A DNA stretch of 64,000 bases. It comes from Cytophagales bacterium (GTDB lineage: Bacteria > Bacteroidota > Bacteroidia > Cytophagales > Thermoflexibacteraceae). The DNA lies in assembly GCA_013299115.1 (NCBI GenBank), contig JAAFKA010000014.1, positions 1 to 64,000 on the forward strand, given 5' to 3'. The first letter of the stretch is position 1. Each line of letters begins with the position of its first letter. The notes beneath the pieces were generated by a model, which worked only from the letters and a program-made list of their open reading frames with translations, ran no database searches and was not told the DNA's origin. Shown here piece by piece: positions 3,828-60,482 of the stretch. Position numbers and translations under genes: made by a program.

Positions 3828-3844
3828 GATTTACCACAAATTGT

Positions 3845-3922
3845 GTAGTGTGGACTTCAGTCCACACATAATGAATAATGTTTATTACTCAGTTAAAATG
3901 TGTGGACTGAAGTCCACACTAC
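3845..3922. repeat. Hairpin-pair element, copy 1
   Basis: Two inverted 24-bp copies of gtagtgtggacttcagtccacaca flank a 31-bp spacer. Each copy is itself a perfect 8-bp-stem hairpin (gtgtggac-ttca-gtccacac). The element lies between convergent genes. The same 24-bp terminal units recur at 61007-61123. Confidence 0.85.
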
Positions 3923-3927
3923 ATATC

Positions 3928-9880: not shown

Positions 9881-9932
9881 TTACTTTTTCCATAGTGTAG
9901 GGGTTGCAACCCCTACACTATGGAAAAAGTAA
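9881..9932. terminator. Bidirectional terminator-like perfect hairpin (24-bp stem, tgca loop)
   Basis: ttactttttccatagtgtaggggt-tgca-acccctacactatggaaaaagtaa lies between convergent genes, with a T-run on one side and an A-run on the other. Confidence 0.7.
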
Positions 9933-39640: not shown

Positions 39641-39934
39641 TTGCAAACTACTATTTCTCTCCATAATTTTAGTGTATTCTCTGATGCTACTAAATTCGTG
39701 CAAATCGGAGTTGCGGACACAGGCGTAGGCATGAGTGCCGAACAGATGGGCAAACTGTTCAAACAAGCCACTTCTTTTACAACCTACGGCACCAGTGGCG
39801 AAAAAGGTACAGGCTTAGGCTTGCTATTCTGCCAAGAAATGGCGGAGAAAAACGGAGGCAAAATTTGGGTGGAAAGTGAGCAAGGCAGAGGCACTACGTT
39901 TTGGTTTACGGTGGCAATAAAGTTAGCAAGTTAG
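39641..39934 (+). pseudogene. Orphan duplicate of the 3' end (HATPase_c G1/G2 boxes) of the TPR histidine-kinase gene
   Basis: 39677-39934 is about 98% identical at the nucleotide level to 43703-43960. It encodes only DTGVGM...GTGLGL...FWFTV, without HisKA or N-box. Confidence 0.75.
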
Positions 39935-41029: not shown

Positions 41030-43963
41030 TTGAAAAAGCTAATTCTTGTATTTTTTTTGCTTTTTGCAGCCACAAGTAACTTTTGCTTTGCCCAAAACAA
41101 AAAAGTAATAGACAGCCTTACACAAGTCTATCACAACGCCAAGCACGACACAATAAAAGTATTGGCTCTTACTTCTATTGCCTACGAGTACAGAAGAAAT
41201 AAGCCAGATACTTGTATTTCCATTGCTGAAAAAGCCCTGCAAATAAGTGAAAAAATACAGTATCGCAAAGGGCAAGGCAATAGTTATCATCACATAGGTT
41301 TAGGCTATTATAATAAGAGTGCTTACCCTTTGGCATTGGAATATTACCAAAAAAGCTTGAAAATACGAGAAGAAATAGGGGATAAACAAGGTATAGGAAG
41401 TAGTTTCAATGCCATAGGGCTTATTTACAATAATCAAGGCAATTACCCTTTGGCTTTGGAATATCACCAAAAAAGTCTGAAAATAGAGAGAGAAATAGGC
41501 AATAAGCAAGGCATAGCCATTAGTTTGAATAACATAGGCAATATTTATGATAATCAAGGCAATTACCCTTTGGCTTTGGAATATCACCAACAAAGTCTGA
41601 AAATAGCGGAAGAAATAGGCAATAAACAAGGTATAGCCAGTAGTTTGAATAACATAGGCAATATTTATGATAGTCAAGGCAATTATCCATTGGCTTTGGA
41701 ATATTACCAAAAAGGTATGAAAATAGAGGGAGAAATAGGCAATAAAAAAGGCATAGCCAGTAGTTTGCATAACATAGGGATTATTTACAAAAATCAAGGC
41801 AATTATCCTTTGGCTTTGGAATATTACCAAAAAAGTATGAAAATAGAGGGAGAAATAGGCAATAAAAAAGGCATAGCCAGTAGTTTGCATAACATAGGGA
41901 TTATTTACAAAAATCAAGGCAATTATCCTTTGGCATTAGAATATTTCCAAAAAAGCCTAAAAATAAAGGAAGAAATAGGGGATAAACAAGGCATAGCCAA
42001 TAGTTTGAATAACATAGGACTTATTTACGATGATCAAGGTAATTATCCTTTGGCATTGGAATATTACCAAAAAAGCCTAAAAATAAAGAAAGAAATAGGG
42101 AATAAACAAGGCATATCCATTAGTTTGAGTAACATAGGGAGTATTTACAAAAATCAAGGCAATTATCCTTTGGCATTAGAATATTATCAAAAAAGCCTGA
42201 AAATAGAAGAAGCAATAGGAGATAAAAAAGGCATAGCTGGTAGTTTGAGTAACATAGGCAATATTTATGATAGTCAAGGCAATTACACTTTGGCTTTGGA
42301 ATATTACCAAAAAAGCCTGAAAATAACAGAAGAAATAGGCGATAAATTGGGAACTACCTATTCCCTGTGTGGAATTGCCCAAGTAGCCCAAAAACAAAAA
42401 GACTATGATAAAAGCATAGATTATGCACAAAAAAGCCTAAAAATTGCCCAAGAAATAAAAGCCTCCGCAGAAATCAAAAGTGCAAGCGAAGTCCTTTACA
42501 ATAGCTATAAACTCAAAGGCGACTATGTGAAAGCCCTTGAATACCACGAACTATTTAAGGCAACGAATGATAGTATTTTCAATATAGACAAAGCAAAGAA
42601 AATAGCTAATTTGGAAGCAACTGCGGAGATAGAAAAAAAGTCAAAAGAAATAGAGATTTTGAATAAAAACAAGGAATTATCCCAAAAAGAAAAAGAGGTG
42701 TTGGAAAAAGATTTGAAACTCCAAAGTACAGAGGCAGAAAGGCAGCGAAATGCTAATTTGGTGCTTGAAAAACAAGCAGAAGCAGATAAATTATTCAACC
42801 TTGCTCGGCAAGAAAAAGACAAACGAAAAGCAGACAGCCTGAATAACCTTGCCCAGTATCACCAACTGCAAGCTGATAACCTAAAAGCAAAAGAAAAACA
42901 GCTGCAAGCCGAAAATAAAGCCCAAAAAATAGAGTCTATCAAAGAAAAAGAAGCAAAGGAATTTCAACAATATATTACCTATTTGGTATTGGTGGGGCTT
43001 TTTTCTGTTGTAGTTTTTGCTTATTTTATTTTTATTTCTCGCAAAAAAGTTCAAAAAGCATACGAACAATTAGAAGTTTCTAAAATCAAAATTCAAGAAA
43101 CCAATCAGCATTTGACATTGGCAAACGAGGAGATTTCGCAACAGAAAGAGGAAATTGTGCAACAAGCCGACAACCTCCAAGCTGTAAATCAGACCAAAGA
43201 CAAGCTTTTTGCCATCATAGGGCATGACCTCCGCAACCCTGTGGCTTCGCTAAAAGGAATGTTGGACTTGGTGGTTTCGCAAGACATTAGCCAAGAGGAA
43301 TTTGCAGAATATGCACCCAAACTTGCCGAAAACGTAGAAAATATGCACTTTACGCTAAACAATTTGCTGTCGTGGGCAAACAGCCAACTGCAAGGCATAG
43401 CCAACAAACCCCAAAATATTAACCTCCACGAATTGGCACAAGAAAACTGCAATCTACTCAAAGAAATAGCCGCTCAAAAAGGTATTAATTTGGCGAATGA
43501 ACTACCAAACAACTTGCAAGGCTACGCAGACCAGCAGCAGATTAACCTCATTTTCAGAAACTTAATTGGCAATGCCCTAAAATTTACGCCCGCAGGTGGA
43601 AGTGTGAAAGTGGTTTTAGAAAATAGAACTAACATTTCTCAAAGAAATGTTAGTTCTGAACAATTTAGTAGCATCAGAGATGACATCTTTCAAAAAGATG
43701 TCATCTCTGATGCTACTAAATTCGTGCAAATTGGAATTGCGGACACAGGCGTAGGCATGAGTGCCGAACAGATGGGCAAACTGTTCAAACAAGCCACTTC
43801 TTTTACGACCTACGGCACCAGTGGCGAAAAAGGTACAGGCTTAGGCTTGCTACTCTGCCAAGAAATGGCGGAGAAAAACGGAGGCAAAATTTGGGTGGAA
43901 AGTGAGCAAGGCAGAGGCACTACGTTTTGGTTTACGGTGGGAGTAAGGTTAGTAAATTTTTAG
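41030..43963 (+). CDS. TPR-repeat sensor histidine kinase (signal peptide, ~10 TPR units, TM helix, coiled coil, HisKA, HATPase_c)
   Basis: H-box IIGHDLRNP, N-box NLIGNALKFT, G1 DTGVGM, G2 GTGLGL. Confidence 0.85.
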   Translation: MKKLILVFFLLFAATSNFCFAQNKKVIDSLTQVYHNAKHDTIKVLALTSIAYEYRRNKPDTCISIAEKALQISEKIQYRKGQGNSYHHIGLGYYNKSAYPLALEYYQKSLKIREEIGDKQGIGSSFNAIGLIYNNQGNYPLALEYHQKSLKIEREIGNKQGIAISLNNIGNIYDNQGNYPLALEYHQQSLKIAEEIGNKQGIASSLNNIGNIYDSQGNYPLALEYYQKGMKIEGEIGNKKGIASSLHNIGIIYKNQGNYPLALEYYQKSMKIEGEIGNKKGIASSLHNIGIIYKNQGNYPLALEYFQKSLKIKEEIGDKQGIANSLNNIGLIYDDQGNYPLALEYYQKSLKIKKEIGNKQGISISLSNIGSIYKNQGNYPLALEYYQKSLKIEEAIGDKKGIAGSLSNIGNIYDSQGNYTLALEYYQKSLKITEEIGDKLGTTYSLCGIAQVAQKQKDYDKSIDYAQKSLKIAQEIKASAEIKSASEVLYNSYKLKGDYVKALEYHELFKATNDSIFNIDKAKKIANLEATAEIEKKSKEIEILNKNKELSQKEKEVLEKDLKLQSTEAERQRNANLVLEKQAEADKLFNLARQEKDKRKADSLNNLAQYHQLQADNLKAKEKQLQAENKAQKIESIKEKEAKEFQQYITYLVLVGLFSVVVFAYFIFISRKKVQKAYEQLEVSKIKIQETNQHLTLANEEISQQKEEIVQQADNLQAVNQTKDKLFAIIGHDLRNPVASLKGMLDLVVSQDISQEEFAEYAPKLAENVENMHFTLNNLLSWANSQLQGIANKPQNINLHELAQENCNLLKEIAAQKGINLANELPNNLQGYADQQQINLIFRNLIGNALKFTPAGGSVKVVLENRTNISQRNVSSEQFSSIRDDIFQKDVISDATKFVQIGIADTGVGMSAEQMGKLFKQATSFTTYGTSGEKGTGLGLLLCQEMAEKNGGKIWVESEQGRGTTFWFTVGVRLVNF
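41300..42360. repeat. Near-identical 120-bp tandem repeats inside the CDS (TPR units)
   Basis: For example, 41701-41820 and 41821-41940 are essentially identical. Many units share more than 85% identity. Confidence 0.9.
43624..43717. repeat. Two consecutive palindromes embedded in-frame in the HK ATP-lid region
   Basis: agaactaacatttct-caaag-aaatgttagttct (43624-43656) and the perfect 24-bp-arm palindrome tagtagcatcagagatgacatcttt-caaa-aagatgtcatctctgatgctacta (43665-43717). Together they encode about 30 extra residues between the N-box and G1. Confidence 0.85.
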
Positions 43964-44207
43964 TTGAAGGTGGCTTCACAAGTGCAAATTGTACTAATCA
44001 ACATTTATCATACGAATTCTATAATACCTACCCAAATAGGTAAAGCTATTCGTTGGGGCAGGTAGGCTCAATGCAGGTACTACTGTGCTACTTCTTTTCG
44101 CAACTTTCAGGTTTATTTAGGTGGTTATGTACTAAAATTCAAAATTGTAAGTTGTTAATTGTATAAAATCTTACTAAGTTTGCGAATAGTGCAAAAAGGA
44201 AATCCCT

Positions 44208-44242
44208 ATAACTAATATTTCTTTAAGAAATGTTAATAGTAA
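44208..44242. repeat. Degenerate member of the acatttct..agaaatgtt palindromic repeat family
   Basis: taactaatatttctttaagaaatgttaatag lies upstream of polA. Confidence 0.5.
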
Positions 44243-44300
44243 GGAAGTCCAAGCATTGCTTTTGTGGCACTACCAATTTGCGAAGCCTATTTTACCACCC

Positions 44301-47183
44301 ATGAAAAAACTATTTCTGCTCGATGCCTTAGCCCTTATTTACAGGGCTTATTTTGCTTTTAGCAAAACCCCGCGCATCACTTCCAAAGGACTCAATACAG
44401 GTGCTATTTTTGGTTTCACTAATACCTTGTTGGAGGTCTTGCAAAAGGAAAAACCTACACATTTGGCAGTAGTTTTTGATACGCCTGCCCCCACTTTTCG
44501 CCACATCAATTACCCCGCCTACAAAGCCCAACGCGACGCCCAGCCCGAAGACATTACCATTGCCATTCCTTACATCAAAAAATTGTGTAAGGCTTTGCAA
44601 ATTGCAGTCATAGAACTCGACGGATATGAGGCTGACGACTTAATTGGCACGTTGGCAAAAAAAGCCGAACAGCTTGATTTTCAGACTTTTATGTTTACTT
44701 CTGACAAGGATTATGGGCAGTTGGTAACAGACACAATTTTGCTCTACAAACCTGCTTTTCTCGGCAATGACGTAGAAATTTTGGGGGTCAAAGAAATATT
44801 GGCAAAATGGGACATCAGCCGAGTGGAGCAAGTGGTAGATATGTTGGGTTTGCAAGGAGATGCAGTAGATAACATACCAGGCATACCAGGAATTGGGCAA
44901 AAAACAGCAGCCAAGTTGCTTGCCGAATTTGATACAGTAGAAAACCTGATAGCCAATGCCGACAAACTCAAAGGCAAACAGCAAGAAAACGTAAAAAACT
45001 TTGCTGCACAGGGCATTTTGTCTAAGCAATTAGCCACCATAGAAATTAATTCGCCAATAGATTTTGACGAAAACCTATTGGCTATCAAGCCTTTACAGGC
45101 GGAGGTGCTGCGTCCTTTGCTCGACGAATTGGAGTTTCGCACCATTAAAGCAAAATTGTTGGGCGAAAAAACAACGCCACCTACTAACACACAAAGCTCT
45201 GAAAATCAGGACAAAAAGACAACTTCCAAAACTACAAAAGCTGCCAATAGTAATTCGCAAGGAGATTTGTTTGCTACTTCTTCGCCTACTTTATTGACAA
45301 CTTTGGAAAACAAAGAACAAGCTAATGAAGGACAAGGAGATGGGCAAAATGAAGCAAAATCTTACGCCACTTTTCACGATACAGTTAAGCATTACCACGC
45401 CATAGATACGCCTGAACTTCGCCAACAACTTATTCAGTTTTTGAGTTTGCAACAGGCTTTTTGTTTTGATACAGAAACCACCAATTTACAGGCACACGAG
45501 GCTGAATTGGTCAGTATTTCTTTTTCCTACCGAGCCAATGAAGCCTATTTTGTGCCTATTCCTGCCAACCGCCAAGAAGCACAGCAAATTGTAGATGAAT
45601 TTAAGCAAGTATTTGAAAATCAGGCTATTGGCAAGATTGGGCAAAACCTAAAATACGACATTACTGTTTTGCAAAACTACCAAATAGCAGTCAAAGGCAA
45701 ATTGTTTGATACTATGCTTGCACACTATTTGCTGGAGCCAGATATGCGACATGGCATGGACGTATTGGCAGAAAATTATTTGCAATACAGCCCCATTAGC
45801 ATAGAAACTTTGATAGGAAAAAAAGGCAAAAACCAACTGAATATGCGTGAGGTTTCGCCAAAAAACTTACTCAATTATTCAGCCGAAGATGCAGATGTAA
45901 CTTACCAACTGTACGAAAAATTGCACGCCCAACTGCAAGCAAGACCCGAATTAGTCAAGTTGTTCGACACCATAGAAATTCCGTTGATTGAAGTATTGAG
46001 CAAGGTGGAAAGAAACGGCGTTTGCATAGACAAAACAGCCTTGCAAAACTATTCGAAAGAATTGGAAAAGGAAATTTTGATAGTGGAGCAAAAAATTTAC
46101 CAACAGGCAGGTTTAACTTTCAACATAGCCTCACCCAAGCAGTTGGGCGAAGTGTTGTTTGAGAAACTGAACTTAGACAGCCAAGCCAAAAAGACCAAAA
46201 CAGGGCAGTATGCAACAGGCGAAGAAGTTTTGCAATTTTTGATAGACAAACACCCCATAGTGAGTAACATTTTGGAAATCAGGCAATTACAAAAATTGAA
46301 GTCCACTTACATCGATGCGTTGCCTGAATTGATTAGCACTGTAGATGGTCGGGTGCATACGTCATACAACCAAGCCGTAGCAGCCACAGGTAGGTTGAGT
46401 TCCAACAATCCGAACTTGCAAAACATACCCATTCGCAGCGAAAAAGGCAAGGAAATTCGCAGGGCTTTTATTCCTCAAAATTCCAATCATTTGCTGTTGT
46501 CGATAGATTATTCCCAAATAGAATTGCGAATTATGGCATCTTTTAGCAAAGACCAAACCATGTTGGAGGCTTTTAGGCAAGGCAAGGATATTCACGCAGC
46601 CACCGCAGCCAAAATTTTCAAAATTCCTGTCGAAAACATAGACAAAGAAATGCGAAGACGTGCCAAAACTGCCAATTTTGGTATCATTTACGGAGTTTCG
46701 GCTTTTGGTCTTGCCCAACAACTGAACATACCAAGAGGAGAAGCTGGCGAGTTAATCCGCAATTATTTCATAGAATTTCCCGCCATTAAGCAATATATGG
46801 ATAGCATTATCAACTTTGCAAGGGAACACGAATATGTGGAAACTATTTTAGGTCGCCGCCGTTATTTGCGAGATATTAACTCCCGAAACCAAGTGCAGCG
46901 GGGCTATGCAGAACGAAATGCTATCAATGCCCCGATACAAGGCTCGGCTGCTGATGTTATCAAAGCTGCTATGTTGTCTATTCATAACTTTTTGATAACC
47001 AATCAATTAAAGACCAAAATGATTATGCAAGTCCACGACGAATTGGTTTTTGAAGTGCCACCCGAAGAATTGGAAACTGTAAAAACTGCCATAGCCCAAT
47101 GTATGGTGCAGGCGGTGCAACTGCCCGATGTGGTCTTGGAAGTGGAGGCTGGCGTAGGCAAAAATTGGTTGGAGGCTCATTAA
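44301..47183 (+). CDS. polA: DNA polymerase I
   Basis: The 5'-3' exonuclease N-terminus, 3'-5' exonuclease and the pol motifs (RRRAKTANFGIIYG, VHDELVFE). The start is at MKKLFLLDA. Confidence 0.9.
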   Translation: MKKLFLLDALALIYRAYFAFSKTPRITSKGLNTGAIFGFTNTLLEVLQKEKPTHLAVVFDTPAPTFRHINYPAYKAQRDAQPEDITIAIPYIKKLCKALQIAVIELDGYEADDLIGTLAKKAEQLDFQTFMFTSDKDYGQLVTDTILLYKPAFLGNDVEILGVKEILAKWDISRVEQVVDMLGLQGDAVDNIPGIPGIGQKTAAKLLAEFDTVENLIANADKLKGKQQENVKNFAAQGILSKQLATIEINSPIDFDENLLAIKPLQAEVLRPLLDELEFRTIKAKLLGEKTTPPTNTQSSENQDKKTTSKTTKAANSNSQGDLFATSSPTLLTTLENKEQANEGQGDGQNEAKSYATFHDTVKHYHAIDTPELRQQLIQFLSLQQAFCFDTETTNLQAHEAELVSISFSYRANEAYFVPIPANRQEAQQIVDEFKQVFENQAIGKIGQNLKYDITVLQNYQIAVKGKLFDTMLAHYLLEPDMRHGMDVLAENYLQYSPISIETLIGKKGKNQLNMREVSPKNLLNYSAEDADVTYQLYEKLHAQLQARPELVKLFDTIEIPLIEVLSKVERNGVCIDKTALQNYSKELEKEILIVEQKIYQQAGLTFNIASPKQLGEVLFEKLNLDSQAKKTKTGQYATGEEVLQFLIDKHPIVSNILEIRQLQKLKSTYIDALPELISTVDGRVHTSYNQAVAATGRLSSNNPNLQNIPIRSEKGKEIRRAFIPQNSNHLLLSIDYSQIELRIMASFSKDQTMLEAFRQGKDIHAATAAKIFKIPVENIDKEMRRRAKTANFGIIYGVSAFGLAQQLNIPRGEAGELIRNYFIEFPAIKQYMDSIINFAREHEYVETILGRRRYLRDINSRNQVQRGYAERNAINAPIQGSAADVIKAAMLSIHNFLITNQLKTKMIMQVHDELVFEVPPEELETVKTAIAQCMVQAVQLPDVVLEVEAGVGKNWLEAH

Positions 47184-47206
47184 AAATAAGTAGTACCACA
47201 GATGTA

Positions 47207-47240
47207 ATGCCAGAACTAACATTTTTCAAAGAAATGTTAG
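47207..47240. repeat. Palindromic repeat family member (agaactaacattt-ttcaaa-gaaatgttagttct)
   Basis: Lies between convergent polA and murE. Related to the 43624 and 55785 copies. Confidence 0.8.
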
Positions 47241-47302
47241 TTCTTCTATAACTTTTTAAAGCCTATTTTTATAAACCCTTGTAGATTTCCTGTACCTAAT
47301 TT

Positions 47303-48769
47303 TTAAAGTAATTCCTTCAACACCAATCTATCGTCAAAATCATACTTTACACCCTGAATTTCTTGGTAGGTTTCGTGTCCTTTGCCCGCCACCAAAATCA
47401 CGTCTTGTGGTTGGGCAAGTTCGCAGGCTTTTTTTATGGCAGCCTTTCGGTCTGCAATAATTAATACCTTGTTTTTGTCTGCAATAGGTACGCCAACCTC
47501 CATAGCAGCCAAAATATCGTTAGGATTTTCAAAACGAGGGTTATCGGAAGTCAAAATGACAATATTGCTTAGTTTACAGGCAATAGCAGCCATAATAGGA
47601 CGTTTGGTTGCATCTCTGTTGCCTCCACAGCCCACAACTGTAATCACTTTTTCGTTGCCATTTCGCAAGTTATCTATGGTTTCCAATACGTTTTGCAGGG
47701 CGTCGGGTGTGTGTGCATAATCTACAATTCCCGTAGTGCCTACTGCGTTTTGTATGACCTCAAACCTTCCTGCTGCCGACCTCAACGCCGACAATTCTCG
47801 CAATACCTCATCTTTTGGCTCTCCTAACAAAACAGCAGTGCCGTAAATTCCAAGCAAATTATACGCATTAAACTCTCCAATGAGTTGAAACCAAACCTCT
47901 TGATGCTCGACCAATAAGTGCAAGCCTTGCAAACCATTTGCTAAAATTTTTGCCTTAAAATCTGCCCCTGATTGCAGAGCAAAGGAATAGATTTTGCTCG
48001 CACAATTTTGTGCCATAATGGTTGCTCGTTTGTCGTCTTTGTTTAGCAGGGCAAAAGCATGAGGTTTGAGGTTATCGAAAAGCAATTTTTTTGCTTTGAT
48101 ATACTTATCAAAAGTTTTGTGATAATCTAAGTGGTCGTGGGTGATATTGGTAAAAACAGCCCCTGCAAAGTCTATTCCTGTAACTCTTTCTTGTACTAAG
48201 GCATGAGAACTGACCTCCATAAAAGCATATTGGCAACCTTTTTTTACCATTTTTGCTAACAATTCATTCAAAGTCAAGGCATCAGGCGTGGTGTGTGTGG
48301 CGGGCAATATTTCATCTTCTATGTGATTTTGTACGGTAGAAAGCAGCCCTGTTTTGTAGCCCAAATTTTTGAATAATTGGTAGAGCAAAGTAACCGTAGT
48401 TGTTTTGCCGTTTGTGCCTGTTACACCGACTAATTTGAGTTTTTTGGAAGGGTGGTCATAAAAATTGCAAGCCAATAAAGCCAATGCTTTTGCCGAATTT
48501 TCTACTTGTATCCACACTGTTTTTTGCGGAAGGGTTTGCAAAAGGGCTTCGTCGGGCGGCGTTTCGCACAAGACCGCAGCCACACCTTTTGCCAACACAG
48601 CAGGGAGGTATTGGTGTCCGTCTGTTTGCACGCCACGCAACGCCACAAATAAACAATCGGGGGTAACTTTGCGAGAGTCTTGTTGCACAGAGCCAATTTG
48701 CGTAGCCAAATTACCATAAATTGTTTGGGTGGCAATATTTTGTAATACAATAGATAAGGTTTTATTCAT
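47303..48769 (-). CDS. murE: UDP-N-acetylmuramoyl-L-alanyl-D-glutamate--2,6-diaminopimelate ligase
   Basis: Mur ligase domains with a GTNGKTT P-loop and the expected length. Confidence 0.85.
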   Translation of the reverse strand: MNKTLSIVLQNIATQTIYGNLATQIGSVQQDSRKVTPDCLFVALRGVQTDGHQYLPAVLAKGVAAVLCETPPDEALLQTLPQKTVWIQVENSAKALALLACNFYDHPSKKLKLVGVTGTNGKTTTVTLLYQLFKNLGYKTGLLSTVQNHIEDEILPATHTTPDALTLNELLAKMVKKGCQYAFMEVSSHALVQERVTGIDFAGAVFTNITHDHLDYHKTFDKYIKAKKLLFDNLKPHAFALLNKDDKRATIMAQNCASKIYSFALQSGADFKAKILANGLQGLHLLVEHQEVWFQLIGEFNAYNLLGIYGTAVLLGEPKDEVLRELSALRSAAGRFEVIQNAVGTTGIVDYAHTPDALQNVLETIDNLRNGNEKVITVVGCGGNRDATKRPIMAAIACKLSNIVILTSDNPRFENPNDILAAMEVGVPIADKNKVLIIADRKAAIKKACELAQPQDVILVAGKGHETYQEIQGVKYDFDDRLVLKELL

Positions 48770-48825
48770 TGGTTGTTTATTTTGAAAAAAAAATTGTATC
48801 TTTTTTCAAGCCCTATAACAAAAAT

Positions 48826-50220
48826 CTACACCAAATCTGCAAACAGATTAGGCACAACACCCAACAACAAGGTGAGCAAAATAGACAAGACAAAAGCTGC
48901 TTGTTGCAACCCTGTAAGTGCTATTTTTTCGGTTTTTCCTTCGCGTATATACATGGCAATCACCACTTTGAAGTAGTAATAAATACCAACAGCCGACATC
49001 AAAATTGCACCTATCAACAACCAATTTAAACCTCCTTTTGCAAAAGCACTTGAAAAAATAAGGAACTTGCCAAAAAATCCGCCTGTGAGTGGAATACCTG
49101 CCAAAGAACACATGGCTAAGGTCATGACAAAAGCCAAAAAAGGATTGTTCTTAGCCAAGCCGTTGAAAGCCGAAAAGTCTTCGCTGCCCTGTTGTTTGTC
49201 TGCTACCAATATCAAAACGCCAAAGGCTGCAATGGTGGCTACGGAGTAAGCTAAGGAGTAAAACAAAATAGCATCTTGCGAGGTGTTTTGGAAGGCTGTA
49301 ACCGCAATGAGCAAATAACCTGCATGAGAAATACCCGAATAAGCCATCATTCGTTTGAAACTGTGCTGGTGAGAGGCGGTGATATTGCCCACGACCAAAG
49401 TAAGCAAGGCAACTACGGCTATGCTCATTGCCCAATAATCGTACAAACCTGTAAAAGAAACTGCCAACAAACGGTACAAAGCTGCAAAACCTGCTGTTTT
49501 GACTACGGTGGACATGAAGGCTGTGAACAAAGAAGGTGAACCTTCATAGACATCAGGAGTCCAGAAATGAAAAGGTGCTGCCGAAACTTTGAACAATACA
49601 CCAATCAACACCATGACGATACCTACATACAACAAAGGCGACAAATTTCCTACATTGGCGTTAGTATAATCTGCTATGCCTTTGATACTGAAACTCATGG
49701 TAGCCCCGTAGAGCAAAGCAACGCCAAAAAGCAAAAAACCTGTGGCAAAAGCACCCATTAAGAAGTATTTGAGGGCTGCTTCAGTAGAACGTAAATTGCG
49801 TTTATCACTTCCTGCCAAGACGTACATGGAAATAGACAAAATTTCTACGCCAACAAAGAGCATAATCAAATTGTCGTAAGCCGTCATCATGATTCCGCCC
49901 ACTAAGGCAAACAGCAAGATGGCGTAATACTCCGCAGGTTGGGCTTGGGGTCTGTCTATGTAGTTTTGCGAAAAAGGAATGACCAACAAAGCCGATACCA
50001 ACAGAATAGCTGAAAAAACAATGGTGGTTTTATCTACGGTCATCATGCCGTTGTTGTAGGCAGAGGACAGGGTAAAAGGCACATTCCAATCCCAAAGATT
50101 GACTGCCAAAGCCACCAATAAAAACAACAAGGTGGCGGGCATGAGTAAACTGCGACTTTTGTTAAAGCCCAAAAACAGACTGGCAATGCCAGAAACAGAC
50201 AAGAGTATGATAGATAGCAT
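48826..50220 (-). CDS. nuoN: NuoN/MrpD-family proton-translocating membrane subunit (NADH-quinone oxidoreductase chain N-like)
   Basis: 464 aa and polytopic, with the typical NuoN-family sequence. No other nuo genes are adjacent. Confidence 0.7.
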   Translation of the reverse strand: MLSIILLSVSGIASLFLGFNKSRSLLMPATLLFLLVALAVNLWDWNVPFTLSSAYNNGMMTVDKTTIVFSAILLVSALLVIPFSQNYIDRPQAQPAEYYAILLFALVGGIMMTAYDNLIMLFVGVEILSISMYVLAGSDKRNLRSTEAALKYFLMGAFATGFLLFGVALLYGATMSFSIKGIADYTNANVGNLSPLLYVGIVMVLIGVLFKVSAAPFHFWTPDVYEGSPSLFTAFMSTVVKTAGFAALYRLLAVSFTGLYDYWAMSIAVVALLTLVVGNITASHQHSFKRMMAYSGISHAGYLLIAVTAFQNTSQDAILFYSLAYSVATIAAFGVLILVADKQQGSEDFSAFNGLAKNNPFLAFVMTLAMCSLAGIPLTGGFFGKFLIFSSAFAKGGLNWLLIGAILMSAVGIYYYFKVVIAMYIREGKTEKIALTGLQQAAFVLSILLTLLLGVVPNLFADLV

Positions 50221-50439
50221 GAATCAGCTTTGTTGAATACCTTTAATACCTTTGGTAAAACTTTTGATAAAACCTTTGGTTGCGAAAATAGTAATAAAAT
50301 TTAGTTCCTTGCAAAATTTTTGTAAACTTAATGTAAAAAAAACATTTTATTGCCTTTTCATAAGCAAAAATTTACTAACTTTACATTTGTGTATGTGCTT
50401 TTGGTTGCTACAACCAAAAGTTTTGTCGGTTAGAAAGTA

Positions 50440-50480
50440 GTACTTGCAGGTTTGAGAACCCGCAAGCACCGAGAGACCAC
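50440..50480. repeat. Hairpin (cttgcaggtt-tgag-aacccgcaag) plus agcac-type repeats, related to 40897-40950
   Basis: Shared ggtttgagaaNcc core and downstream (a)agcac repeats. Both copies lie about 80 bp upstream of a + strand start codon. Confidence 0.55.
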
Positions 50481-50489
50481 AAGCACAAA

Positions 50490-50951
50490 TTGGTTATTTG
50501 GTTTTACTTAACTTTAATGATGATGCAAACAAAACAACCTTTATTCCAAACGGACTATGTGCTGTTGGAATATTTACCCGATTGGCGTTGCTTGCGTGTA
50601 GAATGGAATGGATTTGTCCGTTCTGAACAGTACAAAGAAGGGCTTGACCAACTGCTTGCCTATTACAAACAACTACCTGTGCAAGCCGTTTTGATAGACC
50701 AACGCAAACGCAAAGTGTTGCAAAAAGAAGGTGCAGAATGGCTGCAAAGTGTGTGGTTTCCGCAATTTCATGCTGCCCTCAATGGTTCTGTCCGTTTTGC
50801 TTTTATCAACTCCGAAGATGTTTTTGGTAGGGCTACCTCCCAAGCCAATACATTGGAAATTGAGAAAAAGTATCAGCAAAATAAGCATACGATTGAGTAC
50901 AGGTACTTTGACGATTTGGCAGTGGCTTACCAATGGTTGGGTGTGAACTAA
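50490..50951 (+). CDS. hypothetical protein (about 140-153 aa)
   Basis: Clean ORF. No family recognised. Confidence 0.4.
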   Translation: MVIWFYLTLMMMQTKQPLFQTDYVLLEYLPDWRCLRVEWNGFVRSEQYKEGLDQLLAYYKQLPVQAVLIDQRKRKVLQKEGAEWLQSVWFPQFHAALNGSVRFAFINSEDVFGRATSQANTLEIEKKYQQNKHTIEYRYFDDLAVAYQWLGVN

Positions 50952-51166
50952 TGTAGTTTTTATTTTTTTGTTCAAATACTATGCTTGCATAGTATTTGAA
51001 CAGAATCTACTTTAATCCAAAAACTGTTTAAAAAGGATTAAACTTCTATTTTGTACATTGGTATTTCTTTTTGTAACTTTGTCTTAGTTTTTGCTTGTTT
51101 ATTACTAATTTATTCTACTTAAAATGCTGTTTTACAGTTATTTATCCAATACTCATCACATAATAA

Positions 51167-52429
51167 ATGGAAAAGTCGTATCAATATGCTCAACAGCAAG
51201 ACCTACAAGATAGTTTAGCTCATTTTCGCCAACAGTTTCATATTCCTACCCACAACGGACAGCCTTGCATTTATTTTTGTGGCAATTCGTTAGGTCTGCA
51301 ACCCAAAACGGCAAAGGAAGCCATTTTGATAGAGTTAGAGGACTGGGCAAATTTAGGTGTAGAAGGACATTTCAAAGGTCGAAATGCTTGGCTGCATTAC
51401 CATAAAAACCTCACTGCCACCACTGCCGAGTTAGTAGGGGCAAAACCTCATGAGGTGGTGGTGATGAACAACTTAACTGTTAATCTGCACCTATTGTTGG
51501 TTTCGTTTTACAATCCTACGCCACAACGCTATAAAATTTTGATGGAAGGCGGTGCTTTCCCCTCCGACCAGTATGCAGCCGAGTCGCAAGTAAAATTTCA
51601 CAGTTTTCAGCCCGAAGATGCCATTGTGGAACTCCACCCACGCACAGGAGAAACCACTTTGCGAACAGAAGACATAGAGGCAAAAATAGCTGAATTGGGC
51701 AGTTCATTGGCTTTGGTGCTGTTTGGAGGCGTAAATTACTACACAGGACAAGTATTTGAGATGCAACGCCTTACCAAAAAAGGGCATGAAGTAGGGGCAA
51801 AAGTAGGTTTCGATTTGGCACACGCCACAGGTAACATACGCCTGCACTTGCACGAATGGGAAACAGATTTTGCGGTTTGGTGTACTTACAAATACCTCAA
51901 TTCGGGTGCTGGCGGTACTTCGGGGGTATTTATTCACGAAAAATACGCCCAAGATAACTCCTTGCCACGTTTTGCAGGTTGGTGGGGACACAACGAAAAG
52001 GAAAGGTTTTTGATGAAAAAAGGCTTCCAACCCAGCTACGGAGCAGAAGGTTGGCAGTTGAGCAATGCCCAAATTTTACCTATGGCTGTTCACAAAGCCT
52101 CCTTAGACATTTTCAAAGCAGCAGGAATTGCCAACTTGCGAGCAAAGAGTGAAAAACTAACAGCTTTTGCAGTTTTTTTGATTGAGGAACTGAACAAAGA
52201 GCAAAAAAACATACAAATTCGCATCTTAACTCCTGCCCAACCCGCAGCAAGAGGTTGCCAACTATCCTTAGTTTTCAACAAAAACGGCAAGCAAATTCAC
52301 CAACAACTAACCGACAAAGGCATCGTAGCAGATTGGCGTGAGCCTGATGTCATACGCATTGCCCCTGTGCCTTTGTATAATACTTTTGTGGAAGTTTGGC
52401 GGTTTTATGAAGTTTTAAGAGAGTTATAA
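51167..52429 (+). CDS. kynU: kynureninase
   Basis: Class-V aminotransferase fold. The sequence is typical of bacterial kynureninases over its full length. Confidence 0.8.
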   Translation: MEKSYQYAQQQDLQDSLAHFRQQFHIPTHNGQPCIYFCGNSLGLQPKTAKEAILIELEDWANLGVEGHFKGRNAWLHYHKNLTATTAELVGAKPHEVVVMNNLTVNLHLLLVSFYNPTPQRYKILMEGGAFPSDQYAAESQVKFHSFQPEDAIVELHPRTGETTLRTEDIEAKIAELGSSLALVLFGGVNYYTGQVFEMQRLTKKGHEVGAKVGFDLAHATGNIRLHLHEWETDFAVWCTYKYLNSGAGGTSGVFIHEKYAQDNSLPRFAGWWGHNEKERFLMKKGFQPSYGAEGWQLSNAQILPMAVHKASLDIFKAAGIANLRAKSEKLTAFAVFLIEELNKEQKNIQIRILTPAQPAARGCQLSLVFNKNGKQIHQQLTDKGIVADWREPDVIRIAPVPLYNTFVEVWRFYEVLREL

Positions 52430-52466
52430 AAAATAAAACAACTGTTTAGCTTTTTATAACTATCAC

Positions 52467-53651
52467 TTAGTTTGCTTTTTTTAGCCTTGTAGCCAAAAAA
52501 AGAGCCAAAACAGCCACTGTAATAGAAAGATAGCCTACTTTGTCATAGTTGAAAATCACGCCATTTTGTTTGTTCACTATCACACCCGCCACGTAAGCAG
52601 CAGAGGCAGAGGCAGCATTTTGCATAGAGGAATTGATACTCATAAAACCTCCTCTGTTGTTGGCTGGCACAGCCTCCGAAATCATTGTAACGGCGGGTAC
52701 TGCCCTGCCGTTGCTAAGAACAAAAAATGCAGAAGTAATGCACAAGGCAAAATAAATAGGCATTGGGGGCAAATTGGTAATAACCCAAATAGGTAACAAA
52801 GTAAGTGTAGCAAAAATCAGAAAGATAGGCAATCTGCCGTATTTGTCAGCCAATTTTCCAACCAAAGGAGAGGAGAAAATGACACAAGCCCCACCACAAA
52901 AGTAAATCAAAGGCAACTCTTCTTGACTAAAACCCACATTGGAAACCATATAATCACTCAAAAATGGAATAATGGTAAACATACCAAAAAAGACTGTAAA
53001 CGAAAAAGCTAAGGCTTTGATTTGGTTAAAATCCGCAGCTATGTTCGACAAAACCACAAAAGGCGAAGTGGTGCTTTTTTGGTGTTTGAGGTGAGTAGCA
53101 AAGGAGGGAACAAAGAAAAAAATGGCACAGGTCGTAAGCACACCGCCAGCACCCAAAAACACAAAAGGTGCCTGCCAACCTAATTTGGTGGCTAAATACA
53201 AGCCAAAAGGCACGCCAAAAACCGAAGCAGCAGCAAAAGCAGCCATCACTGTTCCCATAGCAGCCCCGCGTCTTTCGGCAGGAATGGCATCACTGATGAT
53301 AGCCATGACCGTAGCCCCTAAAACTCCCCCAAAAATACCTGTTAAACTCCTTGCAAGTAGCAACATCTCGTAGGTTTTGGCAGCAGCACAGGCACAAGTT
53401 CCCAGCGTAAAGCCCATGTAAACGACCAAAAGCAAGGTTTTTCTATCGAACTTGTCGGCAAAAAAGGCACTCGAAAAGCCTGAAATTGCAGCCGTTAAGG
53501 TATAAGACGACACCAAAACCCCAAATTGTTTGGGCGACAAGGCAAATAATTTGCTCAATAATGGATTGAGAGGCATCATAATCATAAAATCCATGATATT
53601 GGTAAACTGTACCAAAGCCAAGAGGTAGAGTAATAGTTTTTCGTTTTTCAT
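52467..53651 (-). CDS. MFS transporter
   Basis: 12-TM profile with MFS signature regions. Confidence 0.8.
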   Translation of the reverse strand: MKNEKLLLYLLALVQFTNIMDFMIMMPLNPLLSKLFALSPKQFGVLVSSYTLTAAISGFSSAFFADKFDRKTLLLVVYMGFTLGTCACAAAKTYEMLLLARSLTGIFGGVLGATVMAIISDAIPAERRGAAMGTVMAAFAAASVFGVPFGLYLATKLGWQAPFVFLGAGGVLTTCAIFFFVPSFATHLKHQKSTTSPFVVLSNIAADFNQIKALAFSFTVFFGMFTIIPFLSDYMVSNVGFSQEELPLIYFCGGACVIFSSPLVGKLADKYGRLPIFLIFATLTLLPIWVITNLPPMPIYFALCITSAFFVLSNGRAVPAVTMISEAVPANNRGGFMSINSSMQNAASASAAYVAGVIVNKQNGVIFNYDKVGYLSITVAVLALFLATRLKKAN

Positions 53652-53813
53652 TCAGGTTTATATTTGCCTAATAGATTTGTACAAATTAGTTTTCAGTTGC
53701 AAGGTATAACAATACGAGCTAATAGTTGGAAAAATAAGACACTTTTATTTGTCTTACAATGCCATTATCAGTATTTTCGCAAACAATGCAATACAGTTTT
53801 AACCCAAAAAACG

Positions 53814-54911
53814 ATGAAAAAAAAGGTATTAGTGCTTACAGGTGGAGGCGACTGCCCAGGTTTGAATGCCGTCATTCGGGGCATAGTCAAAAGAGCTGCC
53901 CAAACCACAGACTGGGAAGTGATTGGTAGCAAGGAGGCTTACAATGGCGTATTGAGCAACCCCCAAGAAATAGTAACCTTAGACAACCGAGCCGTAGCAG
54001 GAATTCACGTCATTGGGGGAACTATCATTGGCACAACCAACAAAGGTGGTCCCTTTAACTGGGCGGTGCAGCAGCCTGATGGCAGTTGGAAAAACGAAGA
54101 CAGGTCAGCCGAGTTAGTCAAAAGATTGCAAGAACTCAATGTAGAGGCTATCATCAGTATTGGTGGCGATGGGTCGCAACGGATTTCGCAACAGTTGGTA
54201 GAAAAAGGACTAAAAATAGTGGGAGTTCCCAAGACCATAGACAACGACCTTTCGGCTACAGATTTTACTTTTGGTTTTCAAACCGCAGTACAAATAGCTT
54301 CTGATGCTTTTGATAAATTGGTAACAACAGCAGCCAGCCACCACCGCGTCATGATTTTGGAGGTTATGGGCAGAGAAGCAGGGTGGATAGCCTTGCATAC
54401 AGCTATGTCAGGCGGGGCAGAGGTCTGTTTAATTCCTGAAATTCCGTACAATATTCAAAAAATAGCCGAAAAAGTAAACAGTCGGTACAACAACGGCAAA
54501 GGTTTTGTGAATATTGTCATTGCAGAAGGGGCAAAACCACAAGGCGGCGGCATATCGGGTATGAAAAGCACAGAAGTAGGCTATGAAAATTTGCGATTGG
54601 CAGGGGCAGCTTACCGATTGTCGGCAGAACTCAAAGCTGTAGGTTGCAAGGCAGACATACGCGAAACTGTACTGGGGCATATTCAACGCGGAGGTAGTCC
54701 TTCGGCTTTCGACAGGGTATTGGCTACACAATTTGGGGTAAAAGCCTTTGAAATGGTGTTGGCGGGTGAGTTTGGTCGCATGGTAACGTATAAAAACAAC
54801 AACATTTCCACTGTTACATTGCAAGAAGCAGTAAGCAACTATAATTTTGTAGATGTCAATTCATATATAGTGAAAGCTGCCAGAGGAGTCGGTATTTCGT
54901 TTGGAGATTAA
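53814..54911 (+). CDS. pfkA: 6-phosphofructokinase
   Basis: LTGGGDCPGLNA ... GGDGS motifs. The start is at the internal Met MKKKVLV. Confidence 0.85.
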   Translation: MKKKVLVLTGGGDCPGLNAVIRGIVKRAAQTTDWEVIGSKEAYNGVLSNPQEIVTLDNRAVAGIHVIGGTIIGTTNKGGPFNWAVQQPDGSWKNEDRSAELVKRLQELNVEAIISIGGDGSQRISQQLVEKGLKIVGVPKTIDNDLSATDFTFGFQTAVQIASDAFDKLVTTAASHHRVMILEVMGREAGWIALHTAMSGGAEVCLIPEIPYNIQKIAEKVNSRYNNGKGFVNIVIAEGAKPQGGGISGMKSTEVGYENLRLAGAAYRLSAELKAVGCKADIRETVLGHIQRGGSPSAFDRVLATQFGVKAFEMVLAGEFGRMVTYKNNNISTVTLQEAVSNYNFVDVNSYIVKAARGVGISFGD

Positions 54912-55012
54912 AATTTTATATACTCCACAAGATTCTAAAACTCTTGTGGAGTGTGTGCTAATAAACTGCAAAGCTATGACTATCAAGTATTTACAATTTT
55001 TTGTTTCTTATC

Positions 55013-55729
55013 TTAAAAAGGAAACCGCAAAGGTTTTTCGCTAAGGGTAACTTTGCTGTATTTTATTTCGGCTTGCAACTGGGTGGTGGTTTGTTCGGAA
55101 GTAAGATAAGTAAAGATAGCCGAAGACAAAAAAGGAAACAACTTGTTGTTAATTTCTTGGAAATCAGCATAATCTATCCTGCCTTGATTGTTGGTTATTG
55201 CATCTTGCAACCAAACTTTATGAATTTTTTGGTTGTTGCCTACATAATTTTTTATCTCAACTGTTTTATTTTGTTGGCTTATTATCAAAAAATCATGCTC
55301 TTGGGCAGTAGCTGTGGCAGGGCTTTGGTCTATAAGGTTACCTGTGAGCAATGCTTCTATGTGAGCAAATCGCAAATCGAAACGCAAATCTTTTTTGAGT
55401 ATTGCAAAGGAAAAAGCATAGTTTTCTTGTTTGGTACGGTCTATAACTTTGATAGAATCTTGTGTTATCAACACCCGAACTACCTCCACGCCCAAGGCAG
55501 GACGAAAAGAAACCCATATAGCACTGTCTTTTTTTGCCCGAATTTCTACAGTAGACTTAAAACTTTGCTTACTATCTTGGTAATTTACTTTTGCCTTAGC
55601 AGTTAAATAGACAAAATTAACTTGTGAAATTATCCCTTTATTTTCAGGCAATCTAAAATCTTTGATAGGTTTGACAGTTTTGCAAGCTGCTAAAAAAAGA
55701 AATAGCAAAATAAGAAATTGCTTTGGCAT
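55013..55729 (-). CDS. hypothetical lipoprotein (DUF4292/LolA-like?)
   Basis: Signal peptide plus LAACK lipobox. The fold assignment is a guess. Confidence 0.45.
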   Translation of the reverse strand: MPKQFLILLFLFLAACKTVKPIKDFRLPENKGIISQVNFVYLTAKAKVNYQDSKQSFKSTVEIRAKKDSAIWVSFRPALGVEVVRVLITQDSIKVIDRTKQENYAFSFAILKKDLRFDLRFAHIEALLTGNLIDQSPATATAQEHDFLIISQQNKTVEIKNYVGNNQKIHKVWLQDAITNNQGRIDYADFQEINNKLFPFLSSAIFTYLTSEQTTTQLQAEIKYSKVTLSEKPLRFPF

Positions 55730-55784
55730 AAGTTTTTGAAGTTAAGAGTTGTCTATGATGGCAAGAGTAGTGCCGCAGATATAA

Positions 55785-55823
55785 TGCTTAGAAGTAACAT
55801 TTCTTTGAGAAATATTACTTCTA
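55785..55823. repeat. Palindromic repeat family member (cttagaagtaacatttct-ttgag-aaatattacttctaag)
   Basis: Shares the extended taatgc..agaa.taacatttct motif with the 47198 copy. Confidence 0.8.
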
Positions 55824-56065
55824 AGCTGATACCAGTATTATTTGTTTGACATTACTATCGCAAGACTGCAAAACTGCAAAATTTGATTTATTTTAACTAA
55901 CTACCAATCAAATAGTTATACTAATTTTTGATAAACCCCAAAAAAACTTCTACCTTTGTAAGAGTTTCATATAAACAAAGCCGTGAGGTCTAACAAGTGC
56001 CAGAAAGAAAGGGCAGCAAACAAGGCATTACCACAACTTTCTAAACAGTTGAAAACAATAACAAG

Positions 56066-60288: not shown

Positions 60289-60482
60289 CCTCGAAGAGGT
60301 TGAACAGCAATAGCCCTACGTGAAACGTAGGGACAGTAAAGTAGCTTTTTAATCCAACCCCGCAGGGGTTGAACAATGATACAATAGGTGCAAGTGAGTG
60401 TTCAACCCCTTCGGGGTTGGATGTAATGATGACAATATACCCTACGTTGCACGTAGGGCTATTGATGTTCAACCTCTTCGAG
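60289..60482. repeat. ~200-bp imperfect palindrome built from three hairpin types in mirror order (A-B-C ... C'-B'-A')
   Basis: aacctcgaagaggtt, ccctacgtgaaacgtaggg and caaccccgcaggggttg on the left. On the right are caaccccttcggggttg, ccctacgttgcacgtaggg and caacctcttcgaggttg. Loops are GAA, GAAA and UUCG-like. Confidence 0.85.

Follow-up and report, generated by a model that had tools for sequence, protein, structure and literature searches.

Short repeated palindromes of several kinds have been described in bacterial genomes. Miniature inverted-repeat transposable elements (MITEs), such as Correia/NEMIS of Neisseria, pneumococcal RUP, cyanobacterial Nezha and MITECca01 of Cardinium, are short and non-coding, have terminal inverted repeats (TIRs) and target site duplications (TSDs), and occur in many, mostly intergenic copies. 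Repetitive extragenic palindromes (REP) and bacterial interspersed mosaic elements (BIME) of Enterobacteria and Pseudomonas, as well as pneumococcal BOX, are short palindromes found singly, in tandem, inverted or in mosaics with other hairpins. Rickettsia palindromic elements (RPE; Ogata et al. 2000) reportedly insert in frame into protein-coding genes. Here we analyze a stretch of 64,000 nucleotides from a Cytophagales bacterium (contig JAAFKA010000014.1 of assembly GCA_013299115.1, positions 1 to 64,000; further referred to as the window), which contains several copies of a 33-nt palindrome that we call H1. H1 is probably the conserved central hairpin of small non-autonomous MITEs of Cytophagales-type Bacteroidota, and the four window sites would then be insertions at differing stages of decay.

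The H1 hairpin in the window

H1 consists of a 15-bp stem and a 3-nt loop, with the consensus AGAA[C/G]TAACATTTCT-NNN-AGAAATGTTA[G/C]TTCT. Three full copies and one decayed copy, with loops CAA, TTG or TTA, were found in the 64-kb window by pattern searches:

43625-43657, unstranded: H1 copy 1, perfect 15-bp stem and 3-nt loop, in frame in a kinase coding sequence (CDS)
44210-44235, unstranded: H1 copy 2, a decayed core reduced to the 10 inner base pairs of the stem
47212-47244, unstranded: H1 copy 3, with one T.G position
55790-55822, unstranded: H1 copy 4, with one C.A/T.G position; the stem reaches 19 bp (55786-55826)

By chance, 0.00-0.01 matches are expected (100 dinucleotide-preserving shuffles). 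An nhmmer search of the 64 kb, using a profile hidden Markov model trained on 87 distinct related copies, yields precisely the same four sites. It also reports a marginal half-site at 23036-23052, AAGTAACATTTCTGAAA (E = 0.04), possibly the remnant of a fifth copy.

The palindrome family that the original prediction placed at four sites is therefore real, with a unit of 33 nt. Its coordinates were 1-5 nt off, and the proposed N5 spacer gives way to the 3-nt loop; N5 fits loosely only copy 3, where the T.G pair opens the loop. The extended flank ascribed to copies 3 and 4 is indeed common to them, and it is longer than noted, forming a left module of 21 nt (GTAGTRCCRCAGATRTAATGC). The placement of a copy inside the kinase gene holds, copy 1 being read in frame in the CDS 41030-43963, as does the description of the copy upstream of polA as degenerate. 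Both sites said to flank polA are present; their arrangement is incidental, since the upstream one is a decayed relic. A second perfect palindrome (P2, below), directly 3' of copy 1, was absent from the earlier list.

Occurrence of H1 in other genomes

We found more than 160 distinct H1 copies in loci fetched from metagenome-assembled genomes (MAGs) of Cytophagales/Bernardetiaceae and from metagenome contigs. Scanning one genome per species with a relaxed H1 pattern gave at least 104 stretches with H1 (a lower bound), nearly all in Cytophagales/Bernardetiaceae MAGs and most in the MAG JAFIER01, where many of the sampled spacers are occupied by H1-bearing elements. With the C/G variant of the window, 41 stretches were found in metagenomes; the assembly Ga0209278 accounts for about 30 of these, on long contigs of up to 630 kb. 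Single genomes contain dozens of near-perfect copies, in some cases more than 100, and no association with particular gene classes was seen. The possibility, allowed for in the original prediction, that only the four copies exist and resemble each other by chance is clearly excluded by these counts. Matches in Buchnera, Stammera, Mailhella and four viral contigs were rejected as chance all-AT palindromes in very AT-rich DNA; as the viral contigs have 21-28% GC and their matches are AT-only, a phage origin of H1 was rejected as well.

The organism of the window is not represented in these genomes; coding regions that the window has in common with the H1 loci show a DNA identity of only 67-72%. 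Logan contigs from the Sequence Read Archive runs SRR9948926-34 are 100% identical to the window, and none of them provides an empty site at copies 3 or 4. Four of these same-strain contigs end at 47215, inside H1 of copy 3, as is usual for a k-mer assembler at repeats. Exact-protein look-ups for strain polymorphism returned no record for the products of polA and of the major facilitator superfamily (MFS) gene.

Element families around H1

Clustering of the flanks and reading of individual examples reveal at least five families (A-E) of short elements, 82-306 bp long, with H1 as the central module and TIRs specific to each family:

Family A (JAFIER01): TIR CATACTACTATACATT..-H1-..(second hairpin H2)..AATGTATAGTAGTATG, 82-129 bp
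Family B: TIR GGGTGTACGACAA, layout GGGTGTACGACAACTTTGCTAAAT..-H1-..ACGTACACCC, 83-306 bp
Family C (Ga0209278): TAGTGTCGTGCTATAAATTATTATAC..-H1-TCTATAAGTTTTTAAGGCACGACACTA
Family D (CANGYA01, Ga0209278): GGTAGTGCCACA..GTAATGC..-H1-..GGCACTACC
Family E (Ga0316607/8): GGACTTACGCA..-H1''-..TGCGTAAGTCC

The termini of these families are mutually unrelated, although H1 is common to all of them. In family B the size classes of 102, 153 and 204 bp correspond to one to three 51-bp units (hairpin and spacer), and H1 may be replaced by a variant hairpin H1' (AGAACTAACAGTTTT-CGA-AAAACTGTTAGTTCT).

Exact 9-bp direct repeats flank 8 of 21 family A copies. Of the 23 listed family B pairs, 11 have exact 8-bp repeats, one an exact 9-bp repeat and two a match of 6 or 7 bp. 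The family D copy at locus L077 has a perfect 8-bp repeat, GATTTTCA. Since the probability of a chance 8-mer match is only ~1.5e-5, these repeats are considered genuine TSDs. Together, the TSDs and TIRs therefore make the elements MITEs in the operational sense: they are short, non-coding, multi-copy, and have TIRs and TSDs of fixed length. Within each family the position of H1 is fixed in essentially all members, and hence H1 was present in the founder of each family rather than inserted repeatedly.

Stem, loop and genomic setting of H1

The 15-bp stem is perfect in 118 of 164 distinct copies. The search patterns left position 5 free and required the TAAC/GTTA bases in all copies. At position 5 the pairs are A:T (86), C:G (62), G:C (8) and T:A (2), so that 158 of the 164 copies are Watson-Crick paired there and six are not. 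Arms with A:T, C:G and G:C at this position coexist with H1' in one genome, and the arms are compensated. The loop occurs in both orientations relative to the TIRs (TTG in six and CAA in five copies of family A; seven and two, respectively, in family C). Centre-deleted copies exist (e.g. AGAAATA-TTATTTCT at locus L017), as do tandem expansions. In 14 of 166 copies, against ~2 expected, the symmetry continues into the unique flanks for 5 bp or more. We considered whether most copies lie at the apex of unique palindromes, and rejected this, as only ~8% extend past the 15-bp stem and the extension is a minority feature.

Called open reading frames (ORFs) cover 82% of bases but contain only 7 of 171 copies (~96% outside); the ORF calls behind this count were crude. 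The bias towards spacers, which the original prediction had suggested looking for, is hence present. Compared with expectations from spacer length, intergenic copies number 87 versus ~74 in tandem, 33 versus ~20 in convergent and 15 versus ~41 in divergent spacers. From the deficit in the latter it follows that H1 copies avoid promoter-containing spacers.

In the MAG JAAFHK01 two long ORFs contain H1 in frame (locus L075, 4926-4958; locus L101, 5431-5463), translated as RNNISLRNVIS and RNNISLRNIIS, respectively, in the same frame as the kinase copy. For this variant the kinase-type frame is the sole one open in both orientations. The first ORF is a predicted membrane protein, and the second one a PfaB-like subunit of polyunsaturated fatty acid (PUFA) synthase, whose homologues are at most 40% identical and in which the H1 site falls in a linker of variable length. 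One more in-ORF match (L061) we take to be native YbdK-type sequence, judging by comparison with E. coli YbdK.

Window copies 2, 3 and 4

The elements around the two intergenic full copies were delimited as follows:

55767-55869, unstranded: copy 4 element, ~103 bp, with left TIR GTAGTGCCGCAGATATAATGC, H1 and degenerate right TIR ACATTACTATCGCAAGACTGC (55849-55869)
47190-47265 (approximately), unstranded: copy 3 element, with family-D-type module GTAGTACCACAGATGTAATGC (47190-47210), H1 and family-C-type flank TCTATAACTTTTTAAAGC (47245-47262)

Copy 4 occupies the divergent spacer between a DUF4292 gene (55013-55729, minus strand) and an RluB-like gene (56066-58132, plus strand). Its left module matches the TIR of family D, and it looks like a putative old, complete but eroded family D MITE of ~103 bp. 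In the long N-terminal extension of the RluB-like ORF there is a 30-nt exact direct repeat (56226-56255 and 56304-56333), at which same-strain Logan contigs end.

The copy 3 element lies in the convergent polA/murE spacer and starts 6 nt past the polA stop codon. Over 65 nt, its left module together with H1 has 84.6% identity with the family D element at locus L077, and the left module common to copies 3 and 4 recurs beside H1 in another MAG (loci L057 and L077). The right flank opens as in family C (TCTATAA.TTTTTAA.GC) and then diverges. Judged by these similarities, copy 3 looks like a partly eroded MITE, its right end being either eroded or chimeric and its boundary uncertain. Copy 2 is a relic located between the kinase gene and polA, 65 nt before the start of the latter (44301).

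In-frame insertion in a histidine kinase gene

The CDS 41030-43963 (plus strand) encodes a TPR-HisKA-HATPase_c histidine kinase, in the frame of which copy 1 is translated as RTNISQRNVSS. Two further features surround this copy:

43662-43722, unstranded: palindrome P2, 29-bp arms, 100% complementary, loop CAA
43625-43711, plus strand: in-frame insertion of 87 nt (29 codons) in the HATPase_c domain, comprising H1, GAAC and most of P2

The insertion is composed of H1 (33 nt), GAAC (4 nt), AATTTAGTAGC (11 nt) and ATCAGAGATGACATCTTT-CAA-AAAGATGTCATCTCTGAT (39 nt). None of the 17 aligned homologues has the corresponding 29-residue segment, which in the window protein separates the first two strands that follow the N box; for the C-terminal 289 residues the best homologues in databases are 40-52% identical. 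The Pfam HATPase_c domain takes up 137 residues for 106 profile positions. In all homologues 18 residues separate 'GS' from the Asp of the G1 box, and this number is 18 in the window protein as well when RTNISQRNVSSEQFSSIRDDIFQKDVISD is omitted. Because of this conserved length we placed the insertion at 43625-43711, starting at the first base of H1, and it is from length conservation that we infer its exact boundaries.

The inner 33 nt of P2 (43676-43708, AGAGATGACATCTTT-CAA-AAAGATGTCATCTCT) agree with H1 in 10 of 15 positions per arm and have the same loop and length. The core of P2 may thus be regarded as a diverged second H1-type unit; tandem H1-type units also occur in family B. No further copies of P2 were found in ~0.74 Mb of loci. 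Its outer left 11 nt (43662-43672), the piece AATTTAGTAGC, are an inverted copy of the kinase codons 43712-43722 just after the insertion (GCTACTAAATT, encoding ATKF). The length argument suggests that these codons are native, and if so, P2 would have grown by inverted copying of adjacent host sequence.

In an AlphaFold2 model built from the alignment, the HATPase_c core has pLDDT (the predicted confidence score of the model) above 90, and the insertion forms an unstructured loop with pLDDT below 50 (residues 68-99 of the modeled fragment, between strands 61-67 and 100-108). We propose that the copy 1 region would be an in-frame remnant tolerated in a surface beta-hairpin turn of the ATP-binding domain, and the kinase gene is plausibly still functional. 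An in-frame repeat missing from homologues is the mark of RPE-type insertions, and the kinase insertion is of this kind.

A promoterless copy of the kinase 3'-end (43704-43956) is present at 39678-39930, after the stop codon of the neighboring TPR-SpoIIE gene, with ~97% identity. The homology begins within the right arm of P2. The copy is preceded by AATTTTAGTGTAT, which resembles a collapsed left arm, so that P2 appears centre-deleted there. P2 seems to mark a rearrangement breakpoint.

Origin of the H1 copies

The interpretation of H1 as the central hairpin of MITEs assumes elements built of a TIR, optional extra hairpin modules, H1 and a second TIR. They would be mobilized in trans, presumably by DDE-type transposases making 8- or 9-bp staggered cuts, as the TSD lengths suggest. 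The window insertions would have decayed to a differing degree: copy 4 would be near-complete, copy 3 would lack the right end, copy 2 would be a relic, and copy 1 an in-frame remnant. Hairpin-templated DNA events, for instance template switching in replication or centre deletions, would shape the dyad symmetry, the compensated arms, the two loop orientations and the outward growth. Perfect stems, one-step compensation, loop inversion, centre deletion and flank extension may all be expected from template switching (PMC8794818), a model for the making and maintenance of hairpins in RNA genes of eukaryotic genomes. Since the model predicts the same features, we do not read the covariation of H1 as selected RNA structure; selection on RNA structure or on a protein-binding site fits the symmetry features less well than templated DNA events.

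Several observations weigh against the MITE interpretation. The TSDs that the original prediction proposed to look for, found in families A and B and in one family D copy, are not recognizable at any window copy. The TIRs in the window amount to an imperfect pair at copy 4 and one end at copy 3, with none at copies 1 and 2. No transposase or multi-copy ORF was found in ~1 Mb of sampled H1-containing loci, and no parental insertion sequence (IS) with matching TIRs was seen there; the long TIR pairs bracket ordinary host genes, so that they were rejected as an autonomous partner element. A plasmid-borne IS carrying the family B ends was likewise rejected, these ends having no match in PLSDB plasmids. 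The flank repeats of family C are inverted rather than direct, and no TSD was seen in this family. In related genomes, the flanks of about half the copies cluster with no TIR family, and copy 1 and the CDS-embedded copies at loci L075 and L101 are devoid of any TIR modules. H1 thus also reaches sites lacking recognizable MITE ends, and the MITE interpretation does not account for the occurrence of one hairpin in five TIR families.

The last points would be covered if H1 were itself a mobile, self-propagating 33-nt unit, spread by a hairpin-specific enzyme (Y1/HUH of the REP-associated tyrosine transposase (RAYT) type, or a new one) or by template switching, with a preference for palindrome centres, and if MITEs merely carried it. 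We consider this unlikely. It is favored by the presence of the same hairpin within five unrelated TIR families, by the stand-alone and CDS-embedded copies without TIRs, by the symmetry running at least 5 bp into unique flanks in 14 rather than ~2 copies, and by the inverted copying of 11 nt of apparently native kinase coding sequence. Nested palindromes point in the same direction. Palindromes that we call 'double-X' (33-35 nt, ~15-bp arms and a 3-nt loop like that of H1, e.g. AAACCTATAAGGTTT-TGA-AAACCTTATAGGTTT) are split exactly at the centre by family C elements in Ga0209278 (L142, 697; L129, 4954; L122, 2319), which accounts for the inverted flank repeats, and a 'double-X' is also found 'empty', standing alone at window positions 27553-27590. 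The nesting leaves room for hairpins that spread alone or attract insertions at their apex. Against such autonomy, the fixed place of H1 in each MITE family implies its presence in the founder, and no pair of filled and empty sites differing by exactly 33 bp was found. A tblastn search of ~1 Mb using the E. coli RAYT and IS608 TnpA sequences gave no match better than E = 0.19, although this negative is a weak one. In a broader and equally doubtful form of this idea, H1, H1', 'double-X' and the P2 core, all formed by a 15-bp stem and a 3-nt loop in 33 nt, would be minimal palindromic replicators that spread without TIRs, nest at palindrome apices and are carried by unrelated MITEs. Replicators of 33 nt, equal to 11 codons with one open frame, would repeatedly give rise to in-frame insertions of peptides into proteins.

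It is quite improbable that the hairpins act mainly as RNA elements, be it terminators or attenuators or REP-like stabilizers of mRNA 3' ends, and owe their abundance to selection. The predicted RNA hairpins of H1 are stable (-14.6 to -23.5 kcal/mol), the copies are enriched in convergent and depleted in divergent spacers, H1 of copy 3 lies 28 nt past the polA stop codon, and a small subfamily (loci L043, L071, L081) has A-tract and T-tract flanks like those of bidirectional terminators. However, of 163 copies, 61 have a T-rich tail after the stem and 51 have one at a control offset, which is no enrichment, and a terminator scan of the region gave no more sites than shuffled sequence; with only 3-5 GC pairs in the stem, H1 was rejected as an intrinsic terminator. 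The locations of copy 4 (a divergent promoter spacer) and copy 1 (a CDS) also speak against an RNA role, and the TSDs and TIRs show arrival by transposition. A known RNA family was rejected too, as there is no Rfam 15 match in the window at the gathering threshold, and below it only generic miRNA-hairpin matches. REP-like effects of H1 on mRNA 3' ends may nevertheless exist.

The remaining reading of the original prediction, a binding site of a dimeric regulator, would make H1 the operator bound by a nucleoid protein or a dimeric transcription factor, with the four sites forming a regulon local to polA; it agrees with the perfect dyad symmetry and with TAAC/GTTA in all copies (bases that the search patterns required), and MITEs of other bacteria do carry host-factor sites, such as the integration host factor (IHF) site in Correia elements, but it is very improbable given the dozens to more than 100 copies per genome with no gene-class association, the copies within TSD-flanked elements and coding sequences, and the compensated arm variants coexisting in one genome, which indicate structure or templating and not base-specific contacts. 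Integron attC and dif-like sites, considered on account of the TAAC...GTTA core, seem unlikely: the spacer of H1 measures 3 nt, its stems are perfect, and both extrahelical bases and cassette arrays are lacking.

The other options named in the original prediction, REP-like elements or minimal MITEs, are in essence borne out by the multi-copy occurrence in the clade, the mostly intergenic location, the TIRs and the 8-9-bp TSDs. REP of the RAYT type was rejected, TSDs being present and no Y1 homologue having been found by tblastn in ~1 Mb, the latter a weak negative.

Other palindromes in the window

A 35-nt perfect palindrome of the 'double-X' format, AAACCTTACAAGGTCTT-G-AAGACCTTGTAAGGTTT, lies at 39117-39151, in frame in the SpoIIE/PP2C domain of the ORF 37331-39595 (residues QTLQGLEDLVRF), and is a candidate for the second in-frame palindrome insertion of the window.

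A 52-bp perfect palindrome at 9881-9932 (TTACTTTTTCCATAGTGTAGGGGTTG/CAACCCCTACACTATGGAAAAAGTAA) is of the H2 type, that is, the second module of the family A MITEs of JAFIER01; this module is therefore common to distant genomes. Nested palindromic mosaics of 80-150 bp, with several small GC-rich hairpins placed symmetrically, were observed at 3843-3924, 24895-25020 and 60310-60460. One segment of the second mosaic, 24934-24990, has 87% identity with part of locus L035 in the MAG JAYTNF01. The window genome appears rich in palindromic mosaic elements.

Significance and comparison with known systems

H1 represents a very abundant, undescribed repeat system in a poorly studied bacterial order, and in one MAG the elements fill a large share of the sampled intergenic spacers. 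Such repeats fragment short-read assemblies, as the contigs of the window strain ending inside copy 3 illustrate, and they are open to being mistaken for regulatory sites or terminators. The kinase is a clean case, from outside Rickettsia, of a conserved enzyme domain that tolerates an in-frame palindromic repeat. The presence of one hairpin core across unrelated MITE ends raises the question of its contribution, be it a host-factor site, a transposition function or self-propagation. A full-text literature search found no published description of the family, yielding only an unrelated Cardinium MITE (PMC9769881); this IS982-derived element of 240 bp has no sequence similarity to H1 elements.

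With bacterial MITEs the H1 elements share all the features listed at the outset, as well as size variants arising by internal duplication and deletion. They differ in that a parental IS or transposase was not found in the sampled loci, and in having one 33-nt perfect hairpin core in at least five families with unrelated TIRs from different genera.

The arrangement of short palindromes described above for REP, BIME and BOX is also seen in H1, together with an extragenic location favoring the 3' ends of genes. Unlike REPINs, which are mobilized by Y1 transposases of the RAYT type, the H1 elements have TSDs, whereas Y1 transposition makes none. The foot of the H1 hairpin is AGAA..TTCT and lacks GTAG; this tetranucleotide is confined to the family D TIR, at whose outer end it lies 21 nt from the foot. 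The H1 stems are perfect and AT-rich, those of REP imperfect and GC-rich. Further, no RAYT-like gene was found with the RAYT and TnpA queries in ~1 Mb around H1.

With RPE the kinase copy shares an in-frame palindrome in a CDS that adds a surface-loop peptide and leaves the fold unbroken, and there are two further candidates; the length of H1, 33 nt, equals 11 codons with one frame open in both orientations. There is no sequence relation, RPE are 100-150 bp long and often located in genes, whereas ~4% of H1 copies are in ORFs, and the phylum is different.

Features shared with the template-switch model (PMC8794818) are perfect stems, one-step compensation, loop inversion and inverted copying of flanks; here the model is carried over by analogy from RNA genes to mobile DNA palindromes, to which it would apply. 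Taken together, H1 repeats are an undescribed family within a known kind, namely MITE/BIME-like mosaic repeats with an RPE-like in-frame insertion.

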